Shown one piece after another: positions 6,471-24,898 of a DNA stretch of 64,000 bases. Numbering within the stretch: position 1 is the stretch's first letter; every line of letters starts with the position of its first letter. The notes under the pieces are model-generated. The model saw only the letters and a program-made list of their open reading frames with translations. It was not told the DNA's origin and searched no databases. Location of the stretch: the sequence record LC494302.1, one strand, 5' to 3'. Origin of the DNA: Escherichia phage SP27. Made by a program: the position numbers and the translations under genes.

Positions 6471-6530
6471 TTGCACCGTACTGATAAAAGCGTATAATGT
6501 TTTACATCGAGAGCGGGAACACTTCCCGCT
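6471..6530 (+). promoter_or_regulatory. class I early promoter plus 5' stem-loop cassette
   Basis: TTGCAC 6471-6476, TATAAT 6493-6498, GTTTTACATC; hairpin AGCGGGAAcacTTCCCGCT 6512-6530. Confidence 0.65.
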
Positions 6531-6553
6531 ACACATTAAGAGAGATTAAAACG

Positions 6554-6916
6554 ATGGCGACTCAAATCAATAAAATCATGCTTAACCTGGTAAACTTCCG
6601 CGATGAGATGAAAGGTCTTCCGGCTGAAACTGTAAAAATTCACATTGCAGCTTATCGGGAACTTATTGCAATGTTGCCGCTTAAGCGTGAACAATACGCC
6701 GCTACTTTGATGCTGGATTCAATGATCCATATAATGATCTCAAATGATTTAACGATGGTTTATCAGTACATGGGCGAAAATTTCGCGGTGTGTAGTAAGC
6801 CAGTACCAGGGATGGCAACAACTGAGGAATTGCACGGCTTAAACTTAAAACAAGATGCATGGGATAATATGCCTCGTTTCCTGGTATGGGCTGACAGTGG
6901 CAAAATTTACAAATAA
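6554..6916 (+). CDS. hypothetical protein
   Basis: start at ATG 6554 (MATQINK) downstream of cassette; 120 aa. Confidence 0.6.
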   Translation: MATQINKIMLNLVNFRDEMKGLPAETVKIHIAAYRELIAMLPLKREQYAATLMLDSMIHIMISNDLTMVYQYMGENFAVCSKPVPGMATTEELHGLNLKQDAWDNMPRFLVWADSGKIYK

Positions 6917-6930
6917 GTTTAATAAAGTAC

Positions 6931-6989
6931 TTGCAAACTATGTTTAATGGCGTATAATGTTTTACATCAGGTGGGGAATAGTTCCCCAC
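6931..6989 (+). promoter_or_regulatory. class I early promoter plus 5' stem-loop cassette
   Basis: AAAGTACTTGCAA -35, GCGTATAAT -10 at 6953-6958; hairpin GTGGGGAAtagTTCCCCAC 6971-6989. Confidence 0.7.
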
Positions 6990-7008
6990 TATATAAGAGG
7001 ATTAAAAA

Positions 7009-7248
7009 ATGGCTAAATCAAAAATGTTCTTAGGTCACAAAAACAAAACTCATTGGAATGTAAGCCTGTGGATTAATAACGATGAGGGATTGTATCGGTT
7101 GGCCCTGGACTTTATTGCCGCCAATACTAATCGCAATGATGCGGCCCGTCATATGATGTTATTTTTAGAACAGACTGGACAAGATAAAACACCGGACGGA
7201 TTCAAATATAGCACTACTGCGATCCGTGCGGCGATGGTTGGAATGTAA
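7009..7248 (+). CDS. hypothetical protein, paralog of 9050..9289
   Basis: shares HKNKTHWNVSLWINN and TPDGFKYSTTAIRAAMVGM with the 9050 gene. Confidence 0.65.
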   Translation: MAKSKMFLGHKNKTHWNVSLWINNDEGLYRLALDFIAANTNRNDAARHMMLFLEQTGQDKTPDGFKYSTTAIRAAMVGM

Positions 7249-7334
7249 TAGAATTTATTTAAAGTACTATCATTTTTTTGCGATAGTACTTTATAATAGT
7301 GTTTTATTCATACACCAACGATAAGGGCAACAGC

Positions 7335-7601
7335 ATGAATATTAAGTATTTTGCGACGCGTGAACAAGCTCGGATCGCCGCACGCCAGGACGGGGCAACG
7401 TTTAAAGATATGGGAGCGGGATCGGCAAGTGGTGAACGTTGGGCCATTGTAAAGCGTAGTACGGCCAGATCTTTACAGTACTGGTTAGCGGCCTTAAAAA
7501 GTCCCGATAGTGTATCGCGTCGAGTGGTAGAAATAAAGCTCGACCGAAAGGGCAACCGCGTGACCGTGTACCGTACTAAAAAGATTGCAGTACTTGAATA
7601 A
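7335..7601 (+). CDS. hypothetical protein, paralog of 20376..20771
   Basis: shares FATREQARIAAR..GETFKDMG and DRKGNRVTVY; start at ATG 7335. Confidence 0.6.
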   Translation: MNIKYFATREQARIAARQDGATFKDMGAGSASGERWAIVKRSTARSLQYWLAALKSPDSVSRRVVEIKLDRKGNRVTVYRTKKIAVLE

Positions 7602-7608
7602 AAAGTAC

Positions 7609-7667
7609 TTGCAAACTATGTTTAATGGCGTATAATGTTTTACATCGAGAGCGGGAACACTTCCCGC
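7609..7667 (+). promoter_or_regulatory. class I early promoter plus 5' stem-loop cassette
   Basis: TTGCAA 7609-7614, TATAAT 7631-7636; hairpin GCGGGAAcacTTCCCGC 7651-7667. Confidence 0.7.
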
Positions 7668-7688
7668 CTATAACCTGGAGTAATAAAA

Positions 7689-7919
7689 ATGACTAATATG
7701 TATATGACTGAAGTTAAAACCGTAAAAGATACTACCACGAATAAAACTACTTACTTACAGCGGATCTGTGGTGTATGGCAACGTATCAGCAAATCAAAGT
7801 ACTTTAAATTAACATCATATGCAAATCGTTCGGATTCATTCAGTACTGAAATAAAAGGTAATAAAGTACACCAATACGGCACTTATTATTATTATAGCCT
7901 GGACGCGATTGCAGTATAA
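7689..7919 (+). CDS. hypothetical protein
   Basis: GGAG RBS; 76 aa. Confidence 0.55.
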   Translation: MTNMYMTEVKTVKDTTTNKTTYLQRICGVWQRISKSKYFKLTSYANRSDSFSTEIKGNKVHQYGTYYYYSLDAIAV

Positions 7920-7957
7920 GCAGTTTACAAATCTTTACAATTGCCGGTATTGACTTA

Positions 7958-7988
7958 TTTTGTCAGTACTGGCATAATGTATTCATTG
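7958..7988 (+). promoter_or_regulatory. class II promoter (TTGACT ... AGTACTGGCATAAT)
   Basis: ATTGACTtattttgtcAGTACTGGCATAAT; no ORF downstream; faces a minus-strand promoter. Confidence 0.45.
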
Positions 7989-8093
7989 GCAGATAAGCCG
8001 TAGCCCATAGGGTGCGGGAGTGTATCTATAGAAAAAGTAGTTTAGTATAGTTACAATTGTGCACCCGGTGGGTTAGCTGTTGTCATGGGGTAT

Positions 8094-8122
8094 ATTATGC
8101 CAGTACTTGATAATGCTGTCAA
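8094..8122 (-). promoter_or_regulatory. minus-strand class II promoter, convergent with the 7958 promoter
   Basis: reverse complement reads ATTGACAgcattatcaAGTACTGGCATAAT. Confidence 0.45.
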
Positions 8123-8168
8123 TACTTTTTTTTTAATATTCAGTACTGAAAACTATTTTTAAAAAGTA

Positions 8169-8196
8169 CTTGCAAACTATGTTTAAAGGCGTATAA
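8169..8196 (+). promoter_or_regulatory. class I early promoter
   Basis: AAAAGTACTTGCAAactatgtttaaaGGCGTATAATGTTTTACATC. Confidence 0.65.
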
Positions 8197-8205
8197 TGTT
8201 TTACA

Positions 8206-8277
8206 TCAGGACGGGGAACGAAATAAGTAACTTCCCGTTAAGTAGCCCAGGAGTAAGGCACACGAAAAACTCCCCTG
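8206..8277 (+). other. conserved structured RNA-like element, copy 1
   Basis: CAGG-ACGGGGAA...TTCCCGT...CTCCCCTG nested complementarity; near-identical copy at 19183-19251. Confidence 0.4.
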
Positions 8278-8287
8278 ATAAAATAGT

Positions 8288-8315
8288 TTGACAATTGTTT
8301 TTAAAAGCGTATAAT
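8288..8315 (+). promoter_or_regulatory. sigma70-like promoter
   Basis: TTGACA 8288-8293, 16 bp spacer, TATAAT 8310-8315. Confidence 0.6.
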
Positions 8316-8347
8316 ACTTACATCAACTACTGAATGAGGGTTACAAA

Positions 8348-8959
8348 ATGAAAACTATCACTACTACTACTTATGTTATGGCTTTTTCTGAATTGAACGC
8401 AGAACAACAAACGTCAGCTATCGAACTGGTTCGGGAACGTGAAAAAAACTTAAACGATGATTATTTTTCTGAAAGTGAAATTGAATACTATAAAGAAACA
8501 GTACTACCGGAATATGGCATTAATGACGCTGAAATACAATTCAGTGGCTTTTGGTCCCAGGGTGACGGTGCATCAATCAGTACTGACCACGTTGACGCAG
8601 TGAAGTTTTTACGCAAGGTAAGAGCATTAACTAAGTATCGCTCAATCCGTCACTTGCTGAATGAAGATGATTTGGCGATGAGTGTAAAGCGTTCGCACTC
8701 CCACTACTCGCATGAGAATACTGTAAGCGGGTACATTGAATCGGCTTACACTGATTTAACCGCAAAACAAGAAACGTTAGTTAATGAGCTTGAGGAACTA
8801 CTCACTGAAACTATTCGTGAATTATCCCGCAAGTTGTACCGTGATTTAGAGAATGCATATGAGGATCAATTCACTACTGAAAACATTACGGCACTGATTG
8901 AGGGTAACGAATATCAATTCAATGTTATTGATGGAGTAGTAGAATCAATCGAATATTAA
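8348..8959 (+). CDS. hypothetical acidic protein
   Basis: 203 aa; GAGGG RBS; no family recognised. Confidence 0.6.
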   Translation: MKTITTTTYVMAFSELNAEQQTSAIELVREREKNLNDDYFSESEIEYYKETVLPEYGINDAEIQFSGFWSQGDGASISTDHVDAVKFLRKVRALTKYRSIRHLLNEDDLAMSVKRSHSHYSHENTVSGYIESAYTDLTAKQETLVNELEELLTETIRELSRKLYRDLENAYEDQFTTENITALIEGNEYQFNVIDGVVESIEY

Positions 8960-8971
8960 TTTAAAAAGTAC

Positions 8972-9031
8972 TTGCAAACTAAGTTTAAAAGCGTATAATA
9001 CTTTATATCGAGGCGGGGAGTGGTTCCCCGC
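8972..9031 (+). promoter_or_regulatory. class I early promoter plus 5' stem-loop cassette
   Basis: TTGCAA 8972-8977, TATAAT 8994-8999; hairpin GCGGGGAgtggTTCCCCGC 9013-9031. Confidence 0.65.
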
Positions 9032-9049
9032 TCAAACGAGGATTTAAAA

Positions 9050-9289
9050 ATGGCTAGTACTAAAACTTACAACGGACACAAAAACAAAACTCATTGGAAT
9101 GTAAGCCTTTGGATTAATAACGGTGAGTCATTGTATCGGCTTGCTCAAAGTTGCATCGCACAAAGTAGAACTAAAGATATTGCTGCGGAATGTATGTACC
9201 GCAGATTAAAAGCCAACGGTACTACTACAACGCCGGACGGCTTTAAGTATAGCACTACTGCGATCCGTGCTGCAATGGTTGGAATGTAA
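9050..9289 (+). CDS. hypothetical protein, paralog of 7009..7248
   Basis: start at ATG 9050 (MASTKTYNGHKNKTHWNVSLWINN); conserved C-term. Confidence 0.65.
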   Translation: MASTKTYNGHKNKTHWNVSLWINNGESLYRLAQSCIAQSRTKDIAAECMYRRLKANGTTTTPDGFKYSTTAIRAAMVGM

Positions 9290-9328
9290 TATTCAGTACT
9301 GAGATAATGGCGGGAACTATTACCCGCC
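9279..9328 (+). promoter_or_regulatory. promoter plus stem-loop
   Basis: TTGGAA 9279-9284, AGTACTGAGATAAT -10; hairpin GGCGGGaactattaCCCGCC 9309-9328. Confidence 0.4.
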
Positions 9329-9346
9329 TTTACTGAGGGTTATCTA

Positions 9347-9634
9347 ATGAGTAAAGTAATAAAGTACAATGTGTTAAGCAAATCATTGTCTATCAGTGAA
9401 TGCACCGATGGTTTTTGGATGTACGATGAAACGCGTGGCATGAATTTAGCTATGCGTGCAAAAACTGCTGAGGCGGCGTATATTCAAGCACTGGAATACT
9501 ACCAGGAACGTTTGAAGGAAGTAGAAGAAGATTATAAAAGCCTCAAAGCGAAAGTAGATCATTTCGTCGGTCAATTCGTGGAAGACAACGACGAGGACGG
9601 GCACTACTGCGACCGTTGCGGATCTTACAGTTAA
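9347..9634 (+). CDS. hypothetical protein
   Basis: 95 aa; C-terminal CDRCGSYS. Confidence 0.55.
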   Translation: MSKVIKYNVLSKSLSISECTDGFWMYDETRGMNLAMRAKTAEAAYIQALEYYQERLKEVEEDYKSLKAKVDHFVGQFVEDNDEDGHYCDRCGSYS

Positions 9635-9651
9635 GTACTAAGGATTATATA

Positions 9652-9864
9652 ATGAGTGATTTAATTGAACGTATCAAAGAGCTTGAAGAAAAAGAATTGC
9701 AGTTGATCGGGTTACGGAATAAAGTATTCCATGATTTAGGTGGCTTTATTAATGCCTGGGATAGTGGCGATCCTGATGCGTTACCTGCTAACCGCCAGGC
9801 GATGATCAATGATGTGCGTGGTGTCTTTGATTATGTTTTAAAAGTACTAGACACTAAGCAATAA
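9652..9864 (+). CDS. hypothetical protein
   Basis: start at ATG 9652 (MSDLIERIKELEEKE). Confidence 0.55.
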   Translation: MSDLIERIKELEEKELQLIGLRNKVFHDLGGFINAWDSGDPDALPANRQAMINDVRGVFDYVLKVLDTKQ

Positions 9865-9925
9865 AGGCGTATAATACTTTATATTGGTACTGACAAACAT
9901 TATAAGCGATGCAGGAGCTTTAATC

Positions 9926-10111
9926 ATGACAACATTATCTGAGGTTATCCGCGATCAAGCTGCAAAGGCTGGAATGACTGTTATCAATGTAGGGATCAAG
10001 ATTGAGATCTCCCCTAACGAGTTGCAAGGGATTCCCGATCCTACTAGCTGGGATCGTGCTGGGCGAATGATGAGTAATGCTTCATTACTGGACGGTACAA
10101 AATTTAATTAA
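9926..10111 (+). CDS. hypothetical protein
   Basis: start at ATG 9926 after AGGAG RBS (MTTLSEVIRDQ). Confidence 0.5.
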   Translation: MTTLSEVIRDQAAKAGMTVINVGIKIEISPNELQGIPDPTSWDRAGRMMSNASLLDGTKFN

Positions 10112-10118
10112 AAAGTAC

Positions 10119-10178
10119 TTGCAATTAGTTTTCAGTACTGTATAATGGTTTACATCAAAGGGAGAAATGGTTCTCCCT
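10119..10178 (+). promoter_or_regulatory. class I early promoter plus 5' stem-loop cassette
   Basis: TTGCAA 10119-10124, TATAAT 10141-10146; hairpin AGGGAGAAatggTTCTCCCT 10159-10178. Confidence 0.65.
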
Positions 10179-10196
10179 GGTAATGAGGAAAATACA

Positions 10197-10418
10197 ATGG
10201 CTAATATCACTACTCTTTCCCAACTGGAAGCACTGGTTAAATCTATGCGGGAACATGCCGACAAAATCGGCGTACAAGATCCAGCCGTTTGCTTCTGCGA
10301 CGAATTGAATGATGATACACTGGTAATAGCAGAAGTCCAGGACGTTTCTAACTATTCCTCGCGTTACACTGGCGGCGTAGCAAATAAAGGTGACTTCTGT
10401 TTATACCTTACAAAATAA
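10197..10418 (+). CDS. hypothetical protein
   Basis: start at ATG 10197 (MANITTLSQ) after GAGGA RBS. Confidence 0.55.
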   Translation: MANITTLSQLEALVKSMREHADKIGVQDPAVCFCDELNDDTLVIAEVQDVSNYSSRYTGGVANKGDFCLYLTK

Positions 10419-10453
10419 CAACGCGGGGAGATAATAACTCCCCGTTACTTTTT
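10419..10453 (+). terminator. intrinsic terminator
   Basis: AACGCGGGGAGataataaCTCCCCGTT stem followed by T-run. Confidence 0.5.
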
Positions 10454-10524
10454 CAGTACTGAATCATTTAATAGACGGATCTCGGCACCCGGTGGGTTAG
10501 TGACTGTTTCGTCTTGATGTAGTA

Positions 10525-10553
10525 ATTATGCCAGTACTGGATGCACTTGTCAA
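10525..10553 (-). promoter_or_regulatory. minus-strand class II promoter
   Basis: reverse complement reads TTGACAagtgcatccAGTACTGGCATAAT; transcribes leftward through GCACCCGGTGGG element. Confidence 0.45.
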
Positions 10554-10586
10554 CAACTATTTTTCAAATACTTTTTATTAAAATAC

Positions 10587-10640
10587 TTGCAATTAGTTTT
10601 TAAACGCGTATAATGTTTTGCATAGGGGGAGCGGTTCCCC
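10587..10640 (+). promoter_or_regulatory. class I early promoter plus 5' stem-loop cassette
   Basis: TTGCAA 10587-10592, TATAAT 10609-10614; hairpin GGGGGAgcggTTCCCC. Confidence 0.6.
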
Positions 10641-10661
10641 TGGTAACTAAGGAATAATAAA

Positions 10662-10898
10662 ATGCTTGAACAAATCAAATCAACGTCTGCGAATGTAACG
10701 GGAACGGTTGTACACTTTACTAGTGATGAATCGCGGGGCGTTCCCTATTGTGCTGTACATGTAAACACTGATGGCAACTACTGGTTTACGGTTTACGGAT
10801 CATATTCATTTGGACGGCCAGGGCATCAAAAAATTCTGGATAAAGTACAACCAACGGGTAAAAATATCACTGCCGAAATGTTTTATAAAAAATCATAA
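10662..10898 (+). CDS. hypothetical protein
   Basis: 78 aa downstream of cassette. Confidence 0.55.
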   Translation: MLEQIKSTSANVTGTVVHFTSDESRGVPYCAVHVNTDGNYWFTVYGSYSFGRPGHQKILDKVQPTGKNITAEMFYKKS

Positions 10899-10903
10899 AG
10901 TAC

Positions 10904-10962
10904 TTGCAATTAGTTTTTAGTACTGTATAATATTTTACATCGCAAGGGGAAACGGTTTCCCC
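10904..10962 (+). promoter_or_regulatory. class I early promoter plus 5' stem-loop cassette
   Basis: TTGCAA 10904-10909, TATAAT 10926-10931; hairpin GGGGAAacggTTTCCCC 10946-10962. Confidence 0.65.
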
Positions 10963-10982
10963 TGGTAACTAAGGATAATCAA

Positions 10983-11282
10983 ATGAAAATTGCAATCATC
11001 GCCCTGGCTTTATCTGTTTCCTCTTTCGCTGTTAATGCGTCGTTAGATGTAAGTAGTGAAAAATTCATTCAGTGCACTGTTGCAATGACCGATGAAAGAA
11101 CTGGCGAGATTGTATTAAAGGATTTAGAGATCCAGCCGGAAGCATTTAAAAACGGCCCGTTCCATGAAGAAGACGAAAACGGTAGCACGACAATTTATTA
11201 TGATGCCAGTTCCAAGCGTGGATCGGTCACTGTAATGGATACTGAGAAAGTAACACACACAGGCGTTATTAATTGCCGTTGA
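10983..11282 (+). CDS. small secreted or periplasmic protein (predicted signal peptide)
   Basis: N-terminus MKIAIIALALSVSSFAVNAS is signal-peptide-like (basic start, hydrophobic core, A-x-A-like site). Confidence 0.55.
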   Translation: MKIAIIALALSVSSFAVNASLDVSSEKFIQCTVAMTDERTGEIVLKDLEIQPEAFKNGPFHEEDENGSTTIYYDASSKRGSVTVMDTEKVTHTGVINCR

Positions 11283-11303
11283 TAGATACTACGGGGTAAC
11301 ATC

Positions 11304-11534
11304 ATGACTAAGCGAATTGTTTTACTTAACGAAAGCAGTACTACACAACTACTTAACGCCGTGCATTATGATATTGAAACGAGCGTTAATCTTATCAGTA
11401 CTGTAGTACTGTTGGACACTGGAAAGGTCGCCAATGATAAAGCGATTGCAGGTATATTAACGGATCTTGAGCCTGGTAGCAGTGCACCCATAACGTTAAA
11501 TGGTAAAGTGTTTAATATTTTACTCACTGATTAA
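11304..11534 (+). CDS. hypothetical protein
   Basis: 76 aa; followed by terminator. Confidence 0.55.
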   Translation: MTKRIVLLNESSTTQLLNAVHYDIETSVNLISTVVLLDTGKVANDKAIAGILTDLEPGSSAPITLNGKVFNILLTD

Positions 11535-11540
11535 GTACAT

Positions 11541-11568
11541 AGCCCACCAGGTGGGCTTTTTTGTTTTT
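11541..11568 (+). terminator. intrinsic terminator
   Basis: AGCCCACCaGGTGGGCT hairpin followed by TTTTTTGTTTTT. Confidence 0.75.
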
Positions 11569-11767
11569 ATAGTATCGTAGTACTGAGATACTTTGAAAAT
11601 AGTTTTAAGAAAGTAGTTGACATTACCACAGAAAAGCGTAGAATGTATTACATCAAGACGGGGAGCACTAAGTAGACCGCCAGTAAGTCGAACGAAAAAC
11701 TGGACACGTCGAGAAAACTTTGATACACTAATAAACGTAAACTAAACTTTAATTGAGGATTTATAAA

Positions 11768-12250
11768 ATGGCTAATGTAAAATCATTCATCAAAGCACTG
11801 GTAGCAAATGAAACTAACGTCGCGGCTGAGATCCTGGCTGAACTGGATAACGATACCATGAAAGCGGTACGCAATAATTTTAACATCGCGTACAGTACTG
11901 CGAAAGAACTACAAGCAAATAAAGCGGCAGAAATTGAAGCGGCAAAGGCGGCCCGTGAAGCAGAACTACAAGCAACAATCGAAAGTATCCAGGCGGCGGT
12001 GTCTGGATTGGATCTGGAAGTGGTTGTGGAAATGGCACATAAAGCCCTGGCGGTTAAGTATGGTGAAGATAAGCCAGAATCTAAACCTAAAAAATGGATT
12101 CAAGAACGTGTTACTGTAGTACTTGATAACGGGGAAGAACATATGATTCCTGTACGCGGTAACTGCATTGCGGTAGTACTGGACGCTATCAAAGAAAGCG
12201 GTATGACTCGCGAGGAATGGATCGAAGCTCATCGCAAAGTTGAAGCATAA
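11768..12250 (+). CDS. hypothetical protein
   Basis: start at ATG 11768 (MANVKSF) after GAGGA RBS; Ala/Glu-rich central helix. Confidence 0.55.
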   Translation: MANVKSFIKALVANETNVAAEILAELDNDTMKAVRNNFNIAYSTAKELQANKAAEIEAAKAAREAELQATIESIQAAVSGLDLEVVVEMAHKALAVKYGEDKPESKPKKWIQERVTVVLDNGEEHMIPVRGNCIAVVLDAIKESGMTREEWIEAHRKVEA

Positions 12251-12271
12251 CAATTAAAGTACTGAATCACT

Positions 12272-12300
12272 AGCCCACCTTAAACAGTGGGCTTTTTTGT
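12272..12300 (+). terminator. intrinsic terminator
   Basis: AGCCCACcttaaacaGTGGGCT followed by TTTTTTGT. Confidence 0.7.
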
Positions 12301-12453
12301 GTCTGTAGTATTCCAGTCCACCAGCACCGCCTAGAATCGATTCTAACGCATTAAACTGATTATCTGATGCATTGCCCTAGCTGGTGGCGTGAAGGTCGTT
12401 AGAATGCGATTGAGAGCGTTTAAAGTATTTTGCAAAAAGTAATAAAAAGTACT

Positions 12454-12512: not shown

Positions 12513-12535
12513 TCCAAATCAAAGGAATCAAAACA

Positions 12536-12763: not shown

Positions 12764-12772
12764 AAAAGTACT

Positions 12773-18285: not shown

Positions 18286-18291
18286 AAACTA

Positions 18292-18861: not shown

Positions 18862-19007
18862 AAGAATTCTTATTCGAAGTAGTGTTTCAAGGTGTCGGTA
18901 GTAATCAATTGATTCGCTCAAGTGGTTACAATGTTAACCAGGCATGGAATAACATTAAACAAATGTACCCGAACGCTATCACATATCGCAACCCAAAAGA
19001 AGTTTAA
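18858..19007 (+). CDS. hypothetical small protein (49 aa)
   Basis: ATGA overlap with previous; read by hand. Confidence 0.4.
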   Translation: MKEFLFEVVFQGVGSNQLIRSSGYNVNQAWNNIKQMYPNAITYRNPKEV

Positions 19008-19021
19008 AAATAATTGAAAAA

Positions 19022-19043
19022 GGGATTGACTCCGGTCAGTCCC
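19022..19043 (+). terminator. intrinsic terminator (first part of repeated intergenic module)
   Basis: GGGATTGAC-TCCG-GTCAGTCCC hairpin preceded by A-run, followed by TTTGC. Confidence 0.55.
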
Positions 19044-19145
19044 TTTGCTATTATATACGCATAGAAACAAATCAGCCCACCGGGTGCATAAATGTATCTA
19101 TTGTTTGCTGGTGGCTAGTACTGAAAACTATTTTTAAAAAAGTAC

Positions 19146-19173
19146 TTGCATTGTACTTAGAATCAAGTATAAT
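19146..19173 (+). promoter_or_regulatory. class I early promoter
   Basis: AAAAAGTACTTGCATtgtacttagaatcaaGTATAATGTTTTACATC. Confidence 0.65.
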
Positions 19174-19182
19174 GTTTTACAT

Positions 19183-19251
19183 CAGGACGGGGAACGAAAC
19201 AAGTAACCCCGTTAAGTAGTCCAGGAGTAAGACATACGAAAAACTCCCCTG
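19183..19251 (+). other. conserved structured RNA-like element, copy 2
   Basis: near-identical to 8206-8277 with a few substitutions; same flanking promoter arrangement. Confidence 0.4.
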
Positions 19252-19261
19252 ATAAAATAGT

Positions 19262-19289
19262 TTGACAATAGAAAGTAAACGAGTATAAT
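19262..19289 (+). promoter_or_regulatory. sigma70-like promoter
   Basis: TTGACA 19262-19267, 16 bp spacer, TATAAT 19284-19289. Confidence 0.6.
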
Positions 19290-19322
19290 ACTTACATCAA
19301 CCACTGATAAGGAAACATAAAA

Positions 19323-19598
19323 ATGCGGATTCTACTGACAGCTAACGAAATCGAACAAGTACTGACTACTAACCTGGAAGACTGGAAACGTGAAGCAGAT
19401 ATCCAGGCGGTTCAATGGTTAAATGATAAGTTAACGCCGGATGACTTAAGCAAGATTGTAGATCCTCAATTCTACGAAGATATCCACGACACCGCGTTAA
19501 GCGTCGAGGATGTACTAGATAAGCACTTTATTGATACTGATTTGCAGGTTTACGGTCGTAAAAACTTTATCACTATTCACGACATTTACAATAATTAA
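19323..19598 (+). CDS. hypothetical acidic protein
   Basis: 91 aa. Confidence 0.55.
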   Translation: MRILLTANEIEQVLTTNLEDWKREADIQAVQWLNDKLTPDDLSKIVDPQFYEDIHDTALSVEDVLDKHFIDTDLQVYGRKNFITIHDIYNN

Positions 19599-19601
19599 GT
19601 A

Positions 19602-19664
19602 TTGACAAAGTATCTTAGTACTGTATAATAGTTTACATCGAGTGAGGGGAAACGGTTCCCCTCC
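19602..19664 (+). promoter_or_regulatory. promoter plus 5' stem-loop cassette
   Basis: TTGACA 19602-19607, TATAAT 19624-19629; hairpin GAGGGGAAacggTTCCCCTC. Confidence 0.65.
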
Positions 19665-19686
19665 TAACAAAGAGAGAGAAATAAAA

Positions 19687-19869
19687 ATGGCTAAGTGCAC
19701 TATCTGCAAGAAAGAAATAGTATTAGTTCCAAGTGCCCGTGAACGTGCCGCTCGGTTCGGTGGCAAAGCGTCAGACTATACAAAAATGTTTACTGCCCAT
19801 ACAGCTTGCCAGGTAGCAAAACGTTCACAAGAAAGCGTAGAATTAATGCGTAAACTTTCCAAAAAATAA
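19687..19869 (+). CDS. hypothetical small protein with CxxC...HxxC
   Basis: start at ATG 19687 (MAKCTICKK); possible zinc-binding residues. Confidence 0.5.
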   Translation: MAKCTICKKEIVLVPSARERAARFGGKASDYTKMFTAHTACQVAKRSQESVELMRKLSKK

Positions 19870-19871
19870 GT

Positions 19872-19933
19872 ATTGACAAAGTATCTTAGTACTGTATAAT
19901 AGTTTACATCAAGTGAGGGGAATGGTTCCCCTC
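19872..19933 (+). promoter_or_regulatory. promoter plus 5' stem-loop cassette (near-duplicate of the 19602 cassette)
   Basis: identical GTATTGACAAAGTATCTTAGTACTGTATAATAGTTTACATC; hairpin GAGGGGAAtggTTCCCCTC. Confidence 0.65.
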
Positions 19934-19956
19934 CTAACTAAAAGAGAGAAATAAAA

Positions 19957-20280
19957 ATGGCTATGATCCTTGCCCAGAAAGTAGAATTGAAAATTGTAAC
20001 CTCCTTTGACATTAACGTTAATCGGTGGACTGATTCACACGGCAATACTTACCACTCTTGCTACGTGTCTGCGTTAATTGGCGACCGCTGGGAAGACCTG
20101 GGACACGAAACCTTTACATACGGTTACGGTACACAAGGCGAATACACGGGCTTGGAGATCATTAAAGAAACCGTTATAGGTTTCAACCCGAAAGAAAAAG
20201 TTATTCACCGCATCGAGGAAGAGATCAACAAAGAAATAACAGTTCGCTACCACGATGTAAAACGTAAGAAAGACATGTAA
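19957..20280 (+). CDS. hypothetical protein, paralog of 13074..13418
   Basis: shares GNTY, YGYG and DVKRKKD. Confidence 0.6.
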   Translation: MAMILAQKVELKIVTSFDINVNRWTDSHGNTYHSCYVSALIGDRWEDLGHETFTYGYGTQGEYTGLEIIKETVIGFNPKEKVIHRIEEEINKEITVRYHDVKRKKDM

Positions 20281-20302
20281 TAGAATCCATTTAAAGTACT
20301 AT

Positions 20303-20331
20303 TTGACATTGCCCAGATAGTACTTTATAAT
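20303..20331 (+). promoter_or_regulatory. sigma70-like promoter
   Basis: TTGACAttgcccagatagtacttTATAAT. Confidence 0.5.
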
Positions 20332-20375
20332 AGACTCTAACTTGTAGTACTAACTCAACTAATAGGATGTATACC

Positions 20376-20771
20376 ATGATTACTAAATTCTACGCTACCC
20401 GTGAAGCTGCCCGTATTGTTGCACGCGAGGAAGGCGAAACATTTAAAGACATGGGCAAAGATGCACCGAAAGGTCAACGCTGGGCCGTACAGTTCAAAGA
20501 GATCTCTGATATTGTGAATTCACCGGAGCCAGTACTAACAGCAGCAGAACTAAAACGAGCGGATTTACTGGCGTCAATACTTGATGCACAAGATGAGTTT
20601 ATCGCTGATTCTGATATCAAAGTACAGACAAACCACACCGCTTGGACTCACGCGGATCACCTGGCAAACCTTAAGCGTCCAAGTGAACTGATTCGCAACC
20701 AGAAAGAGATCCGACACGACCGTAAGGGTAATCGTGTAACAGTATACAGTAAACGCCGCCAGGTTATCTAA
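20376..20771 (+). CDS. hypothetical protein, paralog of 7335..7601
   Basis: start at ATG 20376 (MITKFYATREAARIVAR); C-term HDRKGNRVTVY. Confidence 0.6.
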   Translation: MITKFYATREAARIVAREEGETFKDMGKDAPKGQRWAVQFKEISDIVNSPEPVLTAAELKRADLLASILDAQDEFIADSDIKVQTNHTAWTHADHLANLKRPSELIRNQKEIRHDRKGNRVTVYSKRRQVI

Positions 20772-20803
20772 TAACTTGCAGTACTAACAACACGGCGGGA
20801 TCA

Positions 20804-20829
20804 GTTCCCGCCTTTTTTATAGGACAAAC
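20804..20829 (+). terminator. intrinsic terminator
   Basis: GGCGGGAtcagTTCCCGCC followed by TTTTTT. Confidence 0.7.
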
Positions 20830-20832
20830 AAA

Positions 20833-21087
20833 ATGATTAAGGTTCAACTATATAAAGATAACATCTTACGGGTACACTATAAAGCACCTCAGAGAATCAT
20901 CACAAAGGCCGTACAGCTTGCAAATGAGTTTATTAATGGTAACCTATTACCTAGGAAGTTAAGCAACGGGAAACTGCGTGTAATCGACGTGGACACTAAC
21001 AACAGGATAGTAATCGAGAACACAGGAAAGATAAACCTTTATGAGCATCAACAATACAATAAGAAAATAAAACTAATATCACGTTGA
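20833..21087 (+). CDS. hypothetical protein
   Basis: 84 aa. Confidence 0.5.
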   Translation: MIKVQLYKDNILRVHYKAPQRIITKAVQLANEFINGNLLPRKLSNGKLRVIDVDTNNRIVIENTGKINLYEHQQYNKKIKLISR

Positions 21088-21140
21088 CAGTACTCAAATG
21101 TTTTAGTACTATATGTACATACCAACACGGGGGAAACAAA

Positions 21141-21383
21141 ATGATTACTTTAGAAAAACGTATCAAAGAAACTACATCGCTGGTGGAACTGTTAACAGTA
21201 CTCAAATGTAAAACAACACCATTCAGCACGCCGGACTTTATTAATATGGTTGATGTTAATGGTCGCTATCGTATCACGGTCGAACAAGGAGCGGCGAAAG
21301 TATTCAGTACTAAAAACACGAAGGAAGTGATCCACGCCGTTAATGTTAAAAAAGTAGTTGCCATTGATAGTAAAGTACTGTAA
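21141..21383 (+). CDS. hypothetical protein
   Basis: start at ATG 21141 (MITLEKRIKE). Confidence 0.5.
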   Translation: MITLEKRIKETTSLVELLTVLKCKTTPFSTPDFINMVDVNGRYRITVEQGAAKVFSTKNTKEVIHAVNVKKVVAIDSKVL

Positions 21384-21414
21384 GATAGTTACATTAACTC
21401 AAGGAGAACATGCA

Positions 21415-21999
21415 ATGCGTAATTATACTAAATTCATCCGTACACTGTCAGAAATGGAAACCAACAAAGAGATCCTTTCAGCTTGTCGGTTAGCTGGCCT
21501 GGAGATCATCGGTGCTGGTTCTTCCCGTATAGTTTTCGCTTTAAATGATCGGTTAGTGATTAAGGTCGCGAATTGTGATGCGGGTGTAGAACAAAATGAA
21601 ACTGAATGTAAGGTATGGAATTTTTTAGACTATGACCGCCCTCAGTTGAAACAGTACTTTGCAAAGGTGCATATGCATTTATGCGATCCTGATAATATGT
21701 TTATCGTTATGGATCGGTTGAGTACTGCAAGTAAAGGCAGTGTGAAGCACGTAAACGCGTGCAATGAATTAAAGTACAATATTAAACGTAATGCAATCGA
21801 CCGCCAGCACCGCTTTGCTGATGCACTACAACACGTTGATGATACATTATCAACACTAACGATAAGAGATATCAGAAAACAGAATATCGGCCAGGATCGT
21901 AATGGACTTATTAAAGTACTTGATTACGGTTTAACCAGCAATATCTGGAATCAGTACTATAAAAAGCGTGATGTGGCAGCAAGTAAGGTAACACGATAA
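21415..21999 (+). CDS. protein-kinase-like protein (putative small Ser/Thr kinase)
   Basis: IGAGSSRIVF (Gly loop), VIKV (beta3 Lys), RDIRKQNIG (catalytic-loop-like) and KVLDYG (DFG-like) in canonical order; start at ATG 21415 after AAGGAG. Confidence 0.5.
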   Translation: MRNYTKFIRTLSEMETNKEILSACRLAGLEIIGAGSSRIVFALNDRLVIKVANCDAGVEQNETECKVWNFLDYDRPQLKQYFAKVHMHLCDPDNMFIVMDRLSTASKGSVKHVNACNELKYNIKRNAIDRQHRFADALQHVDDTLSTLTIRDIRKQNIGQDRNGLIKVLDYGLTSNIWNQYYKKRDVAASKVTR

Positions 22000-22013
22000 A
22001 AAAGATTAAAAAA

Positions 22014-22035
22014 GGGATTGACTCCGGTCAGTCCC
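22014..22035 (+). terminator. intrinsic terminator (first part of repeated intergenic module)
   Basis: GGGATTGAC-TCCG-GTCAGTCCC hairpin, identical to copies at 19022 and 24270. Confidence 0.55.
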
Positions 22036-22140
22036 TTTGCTATTATATATCCATTGAGAGATAACTCACTGACCCATAGGGTGCGGAAGTGTATCTATTA
22101 TATAAGTATTCAGTACTGAAAACTATTTTTAAAAAAGTAC

Positions 22141-22202
22141 TTGCATTGTACTTAGAATCAAGTATAATGTTTTATATCGAGAGGGGAAATGGTTCTCCCT
22201 GG
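22141..22202 (+). promoter_or_regulatory. class I early promoter plus 5' stem-loop cassette
   Basis: TTGCAT 22141-22146, TATAAT 22163-22168; hairpin AGGGGAAatggTTCTCCCT. Confidence 0.6.
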
Positions 22203-22219
22203 CAATAAGGAATAAAATC

Positions 22220-22441
22220 ATGACTACAATGACTTGCATTTACGCTTCCAATCTACTGAATGATGCGGCCTTTAATGTTGATTCAGAATATCAATGTTAT
22301 CGGGATGAAAATAAAAAAGTTTTTGTAGTTGATAATAATGGTTTCCATATTGAATTACAATCCGGCTTCACTGGTGTTGATGGTAAATCAGTATGGGGCG
22401 TACAGGATGATAAAGGCACATATCATTTTAAACGTAATTAA
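22220..22441 (+). CDS. hypothetical protein
   Basis: 73 aa. Confidence 0.55.
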   Translation: MTTMTCIYASNLLNDAAFNVDSEYQCYRDENKKVFVVDNNGFHIELQSGFTGVDGKSVWGVQDDKGTYHFKRN

Positions 22442-22444
22442 GTA

Positions 22445-22503
22445 TTGACAAAGTATACCAGTACTGTATAATAGTTTACATCAAGGGGAGAATAGTTCTC
22501 CCC
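22445..22503 (+). promoter_or_regulatory. promoter plus 5' stem-loop cassette
   Basis: TTGACA 22445-22450, TATAAT 22467-22472; hairpin GGGGAGAAtagTTCTCCCC 22485-22503. Confidence 0.65.
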
Positions 22504-22525
22504 GATACTAAAAGGAAACAAAATT

Positions 22526-22798
22526 ATGTCCAGCTACTCCGCTACTATGATCATTAAAGATATGAACGGTAATCCTACTTCTGCTGGTGGATCATTTGGA
22601 AACATTAATTTAGATGGTCGGTTATCCATGCAATCAGCAATCGATGCAGCGAAAGAAGTTTTTAAGAATGAATGTACTGTTAGTAAGCTGGATTATATGG
22701 GATTTGCTATCGAAAAAACTAATCGTTTTGTGGACTACAAAAAACCACTGATGATTGATACTAACCTGAAAGCAAACGAAGTGGAGTACTTATTATGA
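22526..22798 (+). CDS. hypothetical protein
   Basis: 90 aa. Confidence 0.55.
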   Translation: MSSYSATMIIKDMNGNPTSAGGSFGNINLDGRLSMQSAIDAAKEVFKNECTVSKLDYMGFAIEKTNRFVDYKKPLMIDTNLKANEVEYLL

Positions 22799-22986
22799 CA
22801 GTTGAAGAAGTTAAAAAAGTACTGGCAGTACTACGCTATCATAATCATTGTAAGGTGAAGAATGATCCTGATTATCTTGATTCATCCCTGGAAGAGGATA
22901 CACTACAAGCAATAAGCCATATGCAAACATTAGCAAAGCGTATGACCGAAAAGAATAGACCGGACTATATCGGAAATAAAATTTAA
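22795..22986 (+). CDS. hypothetical protein
   Basis: ATGA overlap with previous gene. Confidence 0.5.
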   Translation: MTVEEVKKVLAVLRYHNHCKVKNDPDYLDSSLEEDTLQAISHMQTLAKRMTEKNRPDYIGNKI

Positions 22987-22993
22987 AAAGTAC

Positions 22994-23054
22994 TTGCATT
23001 GTAGTTAGATTAACGTATAATGTTTTACATAGAGCGGGGGAATAGTTCTCCCGC
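22994..23054 (+). promoter_or_regulatory. class I early promoter plus 5' stem-loop cassette
   Basis: TTGCAT 22994-22999, TATAAT 23016-23021; hairpin GCGGGGGAAtagTTCTCCCGC. Confidence 0.65.
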
Positions 23055-23072
23055 CAGTCCAGGAGATACACC

Positions 23073-23336
23073 ATGAACACTATCGAAATCACTATCAATG
23101 CACACGTATACGACAACGTAATCATGCAAACTACTATGACCGCTAATGATACCAGTACTTTGCGGAATACTGTTATTAGTGCCGTATGTGCCGCTATCGG
23201 TGATGTCGCCCTGGAAAATGCAGAACATATCAACAACGGTTTCACTATGTGCAAGCGTGATAACGCAAAACATATCATCGTAGAAGGTTACGGCGGTGTA
23301 GAATTTAATGTTTATATGAAAAAAGTACTTGCATAA
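23073..23336 (+). CDS. hypothetical protein
   Basis: 87 aa. Confidence 0.55.
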   Translation: MNTIEITINAHVYDNVIMQTTMTANDTSTLRNTVISAVCAAIGDVALENAEHINNGFTMCKRDNAKHIIVEGYGGVEFNVYMKKVLA

Positions 23337-23385
23337 TAACTAAAACAAAGTATAATGTTTTGCATAGGGGGAGATATCCTCCCCC
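23329..23385 (+). promoter_or_regulatory. class I early promoter plus 5' stem-loop cassette
   Basis: TTGCAT 23329-23334, TATAAT 23351-23356; hairpin GGGGGAGatatcCTCCCCC. Confidence 0.6.
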
Positions 23386-23403
23386 ACTAAAAGGAGTAAT
23401 AAA

Positions 23404-23628
23404 ATGGCTAACTTTGATGAACTGATGCGGGAAGTAGCTAACCTGGCAGAAGAGAAGAAATCATTCGATTCTATCTATAACACCGCTCATCGTGATTCAG
23501 TACTGGCATGTACTCAGGATCAAAAAGATGAACTAATCGCCACCTATCATGAAGCATGGAAGTACTACCGACAATGGGAGAAAGAAGAAAGAGAGTCTAC
23601 CATTGACGGCCTCAACAATCTAATCTAA
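23404..23628 (+). CDS. hypothetical protein
   Basis: 74 aa. Confidence 0.55.
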   Translation: MANFDELMREVANLAEEKKSFDSIYNTAHRDSVLACTQDQKDELIATYHEAWKYYRQWEKEERESTIDGLNNLI

Positions 23629-23647
23629 AAGTTTTATTTCAGTACTA

Positions 23648-23676
23648 TTGACATAGCTTGATAGTACTGATGTAAT
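23648..23676 (+). promoter_or_regulatory. class II promoter
   Basis: CAGTACTATTGACAtagcttgatAGTACTGATGTAAT. Confidence 0.5.
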
Positions 23677-23704
23677 AACTTTACTAACTACAAGGGGAAA
23701 CATA

Positions 23705-23962
23705 ATGGAACAGTTCACACAATATCGGGTAAATCCTCAAGCTATGGCCTACGTAGAAGACCATAAAACATTACCAGTACTAACACCAATTAAAGGCCAT
23801 ATCTATCGTGCAATGTCATGGAATACCGCCCAGGATGGATATACTACCGCTGGCGTGGGTATGTATTGCGGGAATGGTGAATGGTTTGATCCAAATAATC
23901 CGGTAGCCATTGACAGTACTGAAAAAATGAAATGGGCCGACTACATCGAAGATATTTCATAA
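23705..23962 (+). CDS. hypothetical protein
   Basis: 85 aa. Confidence 0.55.
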   Translation: MEQFTQYRVNPQAMAYVEDHKTLPVLTPIKGHIYRAMSWNTAQDGYTTAGVGMYCGNGEWFDPNNPVAIDSTEKMKWADYIEDIS

Positions 23963-23968
23963 AACTAT

Positions 23969-24029
23969 TTGACAGTACTAACCAGTAATGTATAATGTTT
24001 TACATAGAGCGGGGGAATAGTTCTCCCGC
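23969..24029 (+). promoter_or_regulatory. promoter plus 5' stem-loop cassette
   Basis: TTGACA 23969-23974, TATAAT 23991-23996; hairpin GCGGGGGAAtagTTCTCCCGC, identical to the one at 23034. Confidence 0.65.
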
Positions 24030-24051
24030 CAATAGTTTGGAGTAAAACATT

Positions 24052-24252
24052 ATGTCTATCGCTATCGCCCTGGTTGAAGTACTGAAAGAAGCTAAAGCCA
24101 ACCAGATCGACGTAAAGATCCAGGAACTACAAAACGGCGTAATCGGCTGTACTTGTACCGCTGGTGGAGCGGCAGACTATCGAGAACACGAATCACTCGA
24201 ATCACTGGTTCGGTATCTTACCATGATCGTTGATGATTGGAGAATCATCTAA
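24052..24252 (+). CDS. hypothetical protein
   Basis: 66 aa. Confidence 0.55.
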   Translation: MSIAIALVEVLKEAKANQIDVKIQELQNGVIGCTCTAGGAADYREHESLESLVRYLTMIVDDWRII

Positions 24253-24269
24253 CAAAAAAGAATAAAAAA

Positions 24270-24291
24270 GGGATTGACTCCGGTCAGTCCC
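24270..24291 (+). terminator. intrinsic terminator (first part of repeated intergenic module)
   Basis: GGGATTGAC-TCCG-GTCAGTCCC hairpin. Confidence 0.55.
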
Positions 24292-24414
24292 TTTGCTATT
24301 ATATACGCATAGACAAAAACTAGCCCACAGGGTGCATAGGTGTATCTAAAATATATGGTTAATAACGGTGAGTAACTATCTGCTGGTGGAGTGAAAACTA
24401 TTAATAAAAAAGTA

Positions 24415-24443
24415 TTGACAAAGTATATCAGTACTGCGATAAT
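24415..24443 (+). promoter_or_regulatory. class II-like promoter
   Basis: TTGACAaagtatatcAGTACTGCGATAAT; downstream variant hairpin GGGCGGCaatggtgcgacGGCCC. Confidence 0.5.
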
Positions 24444-24496
24444 GTATCTCGTAGGGCGGCAATGGTGCGACGGCCCACAAAGTTAGGAGATTCAAA

Positions 24497-24829
24497 ATGA
24501 GTACTTCAATCGCTATCGTTAAAGCTTTCATCCGTACCAATGTTTCATCTGTATTCATCGACGGTATGGATCGGGAAGTAGAATACTCAATCATTATCGC
24601 ACAGACTGCAAACGGTGCTCGGTATATCCTCAATGATAGTGAAGCAAATCACTACTACTTCACTAAAGCTACTGGCTTTAAACGCATCGATGCCGATGTA
24701 GTATACGCTAAGATGAATAAGCTGGTAGACAAGATTAACGCTAAAGGCACTATTGATTTACAGTACTGGACCGAAACCGATCCAGAATATGGATCTCACC
24801 GCTACCTGAATCCAGGTATTAAAATGTAA
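24497..24829 (+). CDS. hypothetical protein
   Basis: 110 aa; AGGAGA RBS. Confidence 0.55.
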   Translation: MSTSIAIVKAFIRTNVSSVFIDGMDREVEYSIIIAQTANGARYILNDSEANHYYFTKATGFKRIDADVVYAKMNKLVDKINAKGTIDLQYWTETDPEYGSHRYLNPGIKM

Positions 24830-24836
24830 AAAGTAC

Positions 24837-24898
24837 TTGCATAGTACTTAGATTCATGTATAATGTTTTACATAGAGAGGGGGAAATGGTTCTCCCTC
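24837..24898 (+). promoter_or_regulatory. class I early promoter plus 5' stem-loop cassette
   Basis: TTGCAT 24837-24842, TATAAT 24859-24864; hairpin GAGGGGGAAatggTTCTCCCTC. Confidence 0.65.

Follow-up and report, generated by a model that had tools for sequence, protein, structure and literature searches.

Escherichia phage SP27 (sequence record LC494302.1) carries, within the 64,000-nucleotide stretch of its DNA that we analyzed (the window, to which all positions refer), 26 cassettes that each consist of a promoter and a structured leader; all of them are located on the + strand between positions 6471 and 24898. Judged by their sequence, these cassettes are very probably promoters, and the overall reading that we favor, with moderate confidence, is that they serve as immediate-early expression cassettes of the promoter-early stem-loop (PeSL) type, which would be read by the unmodified sigma-70 RNA polymerase of the host, would carry a hairpin in the mRNA leader, and would also function as recombination linkers. 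The original prediction for this DNA had placed about 25 such cassettes in this interval in front of most early genes. Its coordinates and its description of the parts were accurate, and the word "most" was too generous: about half of the approximately 50 genes in the region are preceded by a hairpin cassette, and about 10 others by a promoter that lacks a leader hairpin.

Anatomy and stem pairing of the cassettes

Twenty-three of the cassettes are canonical, and three are variants with long leaders (starting at 8170, 11617, and 19146; the first and the last of these are paralogues). In the canonical form, an A+T-rich tract is followed by the -35 box, a 16 bp spacer, TATAAT, the string (G)TTTTACAT(C), a GC hairpin, a Shine-Dalgarno stretch, and the ATG start codon (Table 1). 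Cassettes mostly begin 3-16 nt past a TAA stop codon and end at a Shine-Dalgarno-preceded ATG, leaving intergenic gaps of 83-93 nt. The 20 nt upstream of the -35 box have an A+T content of 83%, compared to 61% region-wide, and the consensus directly in front of this box reads aAAAaAgtac (the tract ends in aaaGTAC). The -35 hexamer is TTGCAA in 11 cassettes, TTGACA in 7, TTGCAT in 6, and TTGCAC in 2; the spacer measures 16 bp in 25 of the 26 cassettes, many of these spacers ending in TG, and TATAAT is the -10 box in 24 of 26. In the 23 canonical cassettes, the hairpin begins 8-14 nt past the -10 box (mode 12). It possesses a stem of 6-9 bp, a loop of 3-5 nt, and a fold energy of -8 to -16 kcal/mol, and its 3' end lies 14-23 nt (about 19) from the ATG; this stretch holds the Shine-Dalgarno site (ACTAA..AGGA).

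Table 1. Position and composition of the cassettes, of the putative terminal repeat that contains them, and of one example of a hairpin-less promoter class
Feature	Position	Strand	Promoter	Hairpin (5' arm, loop, 3' arm) or leader	Start codon	Remarks
Putative direct terminal repeat, ~21 kb	4822..25750	+				Alignment to relatives with mapped ends; holds every cassette
Cassette 1	6471..6553	+	TTGCAC-16-TATAAT	6512-6530 (AGCGGGAA cac TTCCCGCT)	6554	
Cassette 2	6931..7008	+	TTGCAA-16-TATAAT	6970-6990 (GGTGGGGAA tag TTCCCCACT)	7009	Duplicated around extra gene in vB_Ec-M-J
Cassette 3	7609..7688	+		7651-7667 (GCGGGAA cac TTCCCGC)	7689	
Variant, long structured leader	8170..8287	+		GGACGGGGAAC...CTTCCCGTT	8348	E = 6e-4 in covariance-model scan; second promoter without hairpin at 8288-8315, then ATG
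Cassette	8972..9049	+		9012-9032 (GGCGGGGAG tgg TTCCCCGCT)	9050	Left edge of gene replacement in several relatives
Cassette	10119..10196	+		10159-10178 (AGGGAGAA atgg TTCTCCCT)	10197	Right edge of indels
Cassette	10587..10661	+		10623-10642 (TAGGGGGA gcgg TTCCCCTG)	10662	
Cassette	10904..10982	+		10945-10963 (AGGGGAAA cgg TTTCCCCT)	10983	
Variant	11617..11767	+	TTGACA-16-TAGAAT	Structured leader, 123 nt	11768	E = 0.012 in covariance-model scan
Cassette	12453..12535	+		12493-12514 (GAGGGGGAA acgg TTCTCCTTC)	12536	Two G.U pairs; extra ~240 bp gene sits inside cassette in four relatives
Cassette	12772..12848	+		12812-12831 (GGGGAGAA atgg TTCTCCCC)	12849	
Hairpin-less promoter class, example	13012..13040	+	Inverted repeat CAGTACTAT...ATAGTACTG brackets -35			
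Cassette	14298..14371	+		14338-14357 (GGGGAGAA atga TTCTCCCC)	14372 or 14377	
Cassette	14527..14604	+		14567-14586 (GGGGGGAA atgg TTCTCCCC)	14605	One G.U pair
Cassette	15114..15192	+		15155-15173 (AGGGGAAA cgg TTTCCCCT)	15193	Duplicated around insertion in CMSTMSU
Cassette	15549..15627	+	TTGACA-16-TATAAT	15589-15607 (GGGGAGAA tag TTCTCCCC)	15628	
Cassette	17671..17745	+	TTGCAT-17-TATAGT	17710-17728 (AGGGGAA acatc TTCCCCT)	17746	Right end of G17 deletion
Cassette	18292..18368	+		18332-18351 (GGGGAGAA atga TTCTCCCC)	18369	
Variant, long structured leader	19146..19261	+			19323	Second promoter 19262-19289, then ATG
Cassette	19602..19686	+		19644-19663 (GAGGGGAA acgg TTCCCCTC)	19687	Gene up to next cassette missing in 121Q
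Cassette	19873..19956	+		19915-19933 (GAGGGGAA tgg TTCCCCTC)	19957	
Cassette, weaker hairpin	22141..22219	+		22183-22198 (GGGGAA atgg TTCTCC)	22220	
Cassette	22445..22525	+		22485-22503 (GGGGAGAA tag TTCTCCCC)	22526	Duplicated around ~400 bp extra gene in 5/5 relatives
Cassette	22994..23072	+		23034-23054 (GCGGGGGAA tag TTCTCCCGC)	23073	Gene up to next cassette missing in 121Q
Cassette	23329..23403	+		23367-23385 (GGGGGAG atatc CTCCCCC)	23404	
Cassette	23969..24051	+		24009-24029 (GCGGGGGAA tag TTCTCCCGC)	24052	
Cassette	24837..24918	+		24877-24898 (GAGGGGGAA atgg TTCTCCCTC)	24919	

The elements of the cassettes are restricted to one strand of one region. On the + strand, positions 4822-25750 contain 30 matches to the promoter pattern TTG[AC][AC][ACT]-N16-18-TATAAT, where a first-order Markov simulation of that region yields an expectation of 0.21; the minus strand of this stretch has a single match, and the other 43 kb of the window have two. 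Eleven promoters on the + strand of these 20 kb match the consensus perfectly (12/12), and about 20 more match it at 10-11 of 12 positions. The string GTTTTACATC (at most one mismatch) occurs 29 times compared to 8.6 expected occurrences, and those on the + strand are concentrated in 6499-24874. When the whole window was scanned on both strands with a covariance model (filters off), 23 hits with E <= 2e-6 were obtained, all of them on the + strand between 6493 and 24915; the three variants scored weaker than the canonical copies, and the best hit outside the cassettes had E = 0.62. No Rfam family matched at its gathering score anywhere in the window, a tRNA scan found no genes, and our literature searches on Asteriusvirus and Rak2-like phages retrieved no prior description of promoter-hairpin cassettes. 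In each of 12 leaders that were folded, the minimum-energy structure consists of a lone 5'-proximal hairpin with an open ribosome site (z-scores of -1.3 to -3.8), preceded by 1-6 unpaired nt if transcription is assumed to start at the eighth nt after the -10 box.

The stems differ from copy to copy and nevertheless stay complementary, as exemplified by GCGGGAA/TTCCCGC, GTGGGGAA/TTCCCCAC, GAGGGGAA/TTCCCCTC, GGGGAGAA/TTCTCCCC, AGGGAGAA/TTCTCCCT, and GGGGGAG/CTCCCCC. For an analysis of covariation, we used the 33 distinct hairpins of the window and four relatives in an alignment anchored on the loops, which were cut to their first 3 nt. In this alignment, 90.2% of the cells are paired, compared to 79.0% in shuffles, and compensatory changes on both sides are present in seven of the nine stem pairs (36 cells vs 14.2 in shuffles). 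The covariation score of 0.428 compares with 0.212 for shuffled sequences, was reached by none of 500 shuffles, and exceeds the values of 0.09-0.20 obtained in controls with slid partners. These data support, rather than prove, covariation of the stems, because each copy entered the alignment with its best-pairing stem as anchor, a choice that favors pairing, and because many copies share ancestry, so that their stem changes cannot be counted as separate events. A second, model-based alignment, made independently from 126 copies, shows the same trend; since its register is ambiguous in the G-run, with a control slid by -1 pairing as well as the structure itself, it served as a cross-check only. 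Plain MAFFT alignments of whole leaders or of hairpins with their native loops placed the 5' arms out of register, so that RNAalifold predicted no pairs, and were superseded by the loop-anchored alignment.

Comparison of orthologous cassettes in the four relatives further sets the stems apart from their surroundings. Identity amounts to 0.994 for the -10 box, 0.977 for the -35 box, and 0.96-0.97 for the stems, and to 0.917 for the loops, 0.932 for the spacers, 0.931 for the rest of the leader, and 0.94 for coding sequences; stems are better conserved than the pooled spacer, loop, and post-stem leader (Fisher P = 9e-6). One G-C pair (alignment columns 6/18) is present in all 33 sequences and the adjoining pairs are kept in 28-30 of them, while the loops read CAC, TAG, CGG, ATGG, ATGA, AAAC, ACATC, or ATATC. 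The CMSTMSU record (marked UNVERIFIED) is fragmented, and since only 10 cassettes were detected in it, it did not enter the counts of hairpins and of conservation. G.T pairs exceed A.C pairs by 15 to 4 in a set of 42 distinct hairpins, and the A.C cases are confined to outer extensions of the stem; such an excess would be expected if the folded species were + strand RNA or the + single strand. Covariation and conservation between orthologues thus bear out the original claim that the structure is maintained rather than its sequence, and we consider it likely that pairing of the stems is under selection in the transcript.

Genomic setting and gene gain and loss at the cassettes

The window resembles, in a patchy manner and at 87-97% identity, the Asteriusvirus-type jumbo coliphages CMSTMSU, BAU.Micro_ELP-22, G17, PBECO4, 121Q, and fEgEco12; between 6400 and 14400, these relatives cover 40-86% of it, again in patches. 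Position 4822 aligns with position 1 of both vB_Ec-M-J, whose direct terminal repeat (DTR) is annotated at 1-21525, and fEgEco12, for which a DTR of 20,993 bp has been confirmed by restriction digest (PMC13070987); the end of the G17 record aligns with position 25750. Since the first positions of two of these records align with 4822 and the end of the third with 25750, the entire cassette field appears to lie within a DTR of approximately 21 kb. Its G+C content is higher than that of its surroundings, and its genes are mostly small ORFans, the exceptions being a DksA/TraR-type zinc finger protein, a GNAT acetyltransferase, and a weak kinase-like match.

The cassette architecture is conserved in a second genus-level lineage. 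Klebsiella phage fENko-Kae01, which shares about 29% whole-genome identity with fEgEco12 (PMC13070987) and was excluded when the covariance model was built, possesses a 19.7 kb DTR with 11 hits of this model, all on the + strand. When viral contigs of IMG/VR were scanned strictly for TATAAT-N10-14-GGGGAGAA-N3-5-TTCTCCCC, multiple copies were found in 121Q only; the other six matching contigs contain single, terminator-like or chance matches. For the related phage CBB, RpoD-type promoters with UP-like elements have been predicted in early regions, including the terminal repeat, with no mention of stem-loops (PMC5259590).

The prediction had also named the hairpins as possible mRNA 5' stabilizers, regulator-binding sites, or recombination hot spots; the last of these roles now receives direct comparative support. 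From chained alignments of the window with five relatives, we derived 22 distinct junctions of gene gain and loss in 6400-25000; 15 of these touch a cassette, six of them at both ends. Cassettes harbor 21 of the 44 junction endpoints, compared to an expectation of 16% (P = 9e-7), whereas coding sequences hold only 11, although they make up 68% of the region. Considering non-coding endpoints alone, 21 of 33 are located in cassettes, compared to 44% expected (P = 0.018), a value that depends on the assigned gene starts and was P = 0.58 with the uncorrected gene list. In several instances, extra genes of the relatives are flanked by a duplicated copy of a cassette of the window (6926-7005, 15105-15199, 22440-22538, and within 12493-12522), and two deletions in 121Q join adjacent cassettes (19693/19861 and 23032/23320). 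The cassettes are near-identical over about 90 bp and flank almost every small ORFan, which would provide homology for recombination, and we think that they probably do act as recombination linkers.

Four junctions are unrelated to cassettes (8331-8397, 11275/11551, 16659/16979, and 21060-21144). At 8331-8397, about 63-66 bp are duplicated in tandem in vB_Ec-M-J where the gene for a 203 aa protein begins. At 21060-21144, a segment of about 190 bp that all five relatives possess and the window lacks is bordered by a direct repeat of 85 bp.

Other promoters and repeats in the putative terminal repeat

The promoters that lack a leader hairpin include a class in which an inverted repeat of 8-11 bp, (C)AGTACTAT...ATAGTACT(G), brackets the -35 box, so that these sites form a second composite of promoter and stem-loop. 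In addition to the example listed in Table 1, copies of this class are present on the + strand at 15869, 16140, 20303, 23648, and about 7262. A second repeat family occurs at 8004, 15046, 16720, 19076, 22073, and 24324 on the + strand and at 5911, 8061, and 10485 on the - strand, with degenerate copies at about 6073 (+) and 6121 (-). In this family, a sigma-70-like promoter made up of TTGACT or TTGACA, 17 nt, and TATTAT or GCATAAT is followed at a fixed 26-28 nt by CCCAYNGGGTGC and then by roughly GTGTATCTAT; the motif occurs nine times compared to 0.01 expected occurrences, contains no open reading frame (ORF), and has no match in Rfam. At 14991, 19026, 22018, and 24274, the -35 box of this family lies within a terminator hairpin (AAAGGGATTGACtccgGTCAGTCCCTTT; AAAGTGGTTGACttcgGTCAGCCATTTT at 14991). 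The family is also found in the terminal repeat of fENko-Kae01, and it may represent a short non-coding or primer RNA unit. Some promoters in the terminal repeat of fENko-Kae01 (at 6279, 8589, 11699, 16827, 17886, and 7223) have a GC stem over or enclosing the -10 box (e.g., GGGAGTATTatatAATACTCCC), which is the commonest PeSL layout of T4-type phages.

The palindrome AGTACT occurs 270 times in the window (positions 1-64000), compared to about 21 occurrences expected from base composition, and CAGTACTG occurs 65 times compared to 0.6. Hexamers of the AGTACT type are the most over-represented ones of the window and likewise of the fENko-Kae01 repeat (17-fold there); their density per kb is 6.5 in 1-25750 and 2.7 further on, in coding and non-coding DNA alike. 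Within promoters, AGTACT is the source of both the GTAC just upstream of the -35 box and the TG of the extended -10 box. A literature search on the over-representation of AGTACT returned nothing.

The first 1.6 kb or so of the putative DTR (4822-6470) contain no plausible ORF and are rich in short repeats, namely CAGTACTG, runs of gatgg/ctagacgg at about 5590-5720, and a duplicated ttcagtactgaataatagtactcctatatagaaaga at 6350-6440; two minus-strand promoters are present here, at 6194 and 5978. This segment may be a packaging or end-recognition region. Just past the other end of the putative repeat, from 25848-28214 onward, over 10 ORFs with lengths of about 65-90 aa follow each other in the same orientation, with overlapping stops and starts and without intergenic promoters; a layout of one promoter per gene inside the DTR contrasts with promoterless, overlapping ORFs of about 70 aa beyond 25750. 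A GC hairpin unrelated to those of the cassettes (AGGCCGCT ctct AGCGGCCT, 25345-25364), with neither a promoter nor a T-run, is located 24 nt before the ATG at 25389, a distance close to the 14-23 nt of the cassette hairpins; it hints that how far a hairpin lies from the ribosome site could be important regardless of where transcription starts.

Possible functions of the leader hairpin

In the reading that we favor, each cassette would provide a strong host sigma-70 promoter, with a UP-like A/T tract, a near-consensus -35 box, a perfect -10 box, and often a TGn-extended -10 element. Early expression would be expected from this type of promoter. The predicted start of transcription lies within the conserved ACAT, 6-8 nt past the -10 box, and since the stems begin about 12 nt past this box and starts usually lie at 6-9 nt, the hairpin would be inside the transcript and would form in each short mRNA 1-6 nt behind its 5' end. 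Both the A-rich Shine-Dalgarno region and the start codon would remain single-stranded, and read-through transcripts from upstream genes would carry the same hairpin. We propose, only tentatively, that the hairpin acts in cis on the RNA, and not as a terminator, as a leader structure by which the ends of each small message would be protected or defined and the ribosome site would be insulated from upstream sequence. Through recombination between cassettes, individual genes would be inserted, deleted, or swapped along with the signals for their own expression, as has been proposed for PeSLs.

PeSLs combine an AT-rich upstream tract and a promoter resembling those for sigma-70 with a stem-loop of the form GGGG...CCCC and, at the 3' end, a Shine-Dalgarno site and ATG; they are dense in ORFan-rich hyperplastic regions, where they mediate insertion, deletion, and replacement, recombination between them yields excised mini-circles that inverse PCR detects, and their stem-loops occupy five positions around the promoter (PMC2839356, PMC4122927). 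The cassettes of SP27 share with them the near-consensus sigma-70 boxes, the AT-rich tract, and the GGGG...CCCC stem-loop, a unit of about 90-100 bp that begins at the upstream stop codon and reaches the Shine-Dalgarno site and ATG, the dense arrays in an ORFan-rich variable region, and the indels and replacements bounded by cassettes, with extra genes between duplicated copies. The resemblance to T4-type PeSLs noted originally therefore holds for the composite, its setting, and the indel edges. It does not extend to the phage, which is of the Asteriusvirus-type jumbo kind and not T4-type (Straboviridae), or to the location of the array, which fills a putative DTR of about 21 kb. The position of the stem probably differs as well: it is fixed about 12 nt past the -10 box in SP27, inside the predicted transcript, whereas in PeSLs the stem-loop is mostly found over or between the two boxes of the promoter, and otherwise upstream of the -35 box or between the -10 box and the transcription start; the SP27 hairpins lack terminator features, whereas a PeSL stem-loop has been reported as a terminator. 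Since stems over the -35 or -10 box occur in other promoter classes here and in fENko-Kae01, the wider family looks very PeSL-like. We would class the cassettes as a variant form of PeSL that occurs in another phage lineage and another genomic setting, and not as a new principle.

Stem-loops at the 5' end stabilize the ompA and papA leaders and the leader of phage T7 gene 10 (references on such elements are listed in PMC3997798). The SP27 leaders resemble these in having a stable hairpin near the message's 5' end and, behind it, an open ribosome binding site; they may differ in their predicted unpaired stretch of 1-6 nt, as known stabilizers begin about 0-4 nt from the 5' end, and classical ones need about 4 or fewer unpaired nt. 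With regard to genomic setting, a putative long DTR with many small genes under host-type promoters, presumably the first DNA to enter the cell, likens SP27 to phage T5. The pre-early region of T5 is a long direct terminal repeat with many small host-takeover genes and strong host-type promoters. There is no sequence relationship between the two phages, two-step DNA transfer is a feature of T5, and we know of no such leader hairpin at T5 promoters.

Several points weigh against the favored reading, in addition to the shared ancestry and anchoring of the aligned stems. Its main weakness is geometry: a start at the conserved CA leaves 1-6 nt unpaired, which makes a stabilizer role marginal for about half of the copies, and internal simple stem-loops give negligible protection against scanning by RNase E (PMC11194081). 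About 10 promoters of the same region lack a leader hairpin, and in fENko-Kae01 there are promoters whose stems over the -10 box would lie outside their own transcript; both observations point to a function that is not tied to the mRNA 5' end. Enrichment of junctions in cassettes relative to intergenic DNA generally is only modest. Furthermore, a literature search on this phage group returned no data on transcription starts, timing, or RNA half-lives, and the proposed promoter activity and start site are therefore based on consensus.

Among the alternatives, the hairpin could terminate or attenuate transcription arriving from upstream cassettes and thereby limit the build-up of read-through along the co-oriented promoters. 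In a reporter assay, the drop in lacZ expression caused by one PeSL stem-loop was about as large as that caused by the rrnB T1 terminator (PMC2839356), most cassettes adjoin the stop codon upstream and no other terminator separates the two, and among the other promoter classes with stems over the -35 or -10 box, one is a genuine terminator hairpin with a T-run that encloses the -35 box. The cassette hairpins likewise resemble intrinsic terminators as GC-rich intergenic hairpins of 7-9 bp. However, each of them separates a promoter from the gene that it serves and lies past the predicted start, so that efficient termination would silence that gene; the 8 nt past each stem contain 0-3 T and in no case a T-run, and a terminator scan passed none of the cassette hairpins while it found nine canonical + strand terminators elsewhere in the same region. 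We do not regard the hairpins as intrinsic terminators, and we consider the broader role in termination or attenuation unlikely.

A function of the inverted repeat at the level of DNA, as a cruciform or single-strand recombination hairpin, as an operator for a dimeric protein, or as a functionless passenger of gene conversion, strikes us as rather unlikely. It would fit with the clustering of indel junctions at cassettes, several of them between duplicated copies, with the speculation of the PeSL authors that GGGG...CCCC is the target of a recombination protein, and with the fact that a DTR is itself a recombination substrate. The preponderance of G.T over A.C mismatches is, however, unexpected for a symmetric double-stranded site or a cruciform, and concerted changes on both arms argue against independent recognition of half-sites by one protein. 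The stems are also better conserved between orthologues than the adjoining spacer, loop, and leader, and the homology of whole 90 bp cassettes suffices for recombination without a hairpin.

It appears improbable that the hairpin is a common RNA tag through which a phage or host protein would switch off or protect about 26 early leaders together in an early-to-middle switch. The same element does recur at the same place in these leaders, with its G-C core and neighboring pairs, at the edge of the ribosome site 14-23 nt upstream of the start codon, and in two genus-level lineages. The loops, on the other hand, vary freely in sequence and length and are the least conserved part, and the outer stem pairs covary, so that sequence-specific recognition would be confined to a short core of G-C pairs; our analysis did not turn up a candidate for the binding protein. 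A boxB/nut-like antitermination site was rejected on account of the non-conserved loops, and an RNase III site because stems of 6-9 bp are too short.

A bolder extension of the favored reading, which we regard as doubtful, is that the leader hairpin might be a dedicated cis-acting RNA signal on all immediate-early messages of Rak2/Asteriusvirus-type jumbo phages, which a factor of phage or host would read so as to protect the entire early class or shut it off in one step. In T7, transcription helps to pull the genome into the cell. The co-oriented array of about 35 strong host promoters, in a terminal repeat that would enter first, might in like manner help to pull in or commit the genome of more than 350 kb, and units of cassette and ORFan might be a mobile currency between co-infecting jumbo phages.

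In practical terms, a simple model locates about 25 currently unannotated transcription units per genome, and the cassette is predicted to provide a compact, strong, and naturally insulated promoter and leader module for Escherichia coli. Its approximately 26 natural variants with compensatory stems constitute a test case for the effect of a short 5'-proximal hairpin on the fate of phage mRNAs. For the biology of these phages, our analysis would extend the PeSL idea, in which linkers both express and shuffle small accessory genes, to a clade of jumbo phages of 350-380 kb, and their long terminal repeat would be a hyperplastic immediate-early region.

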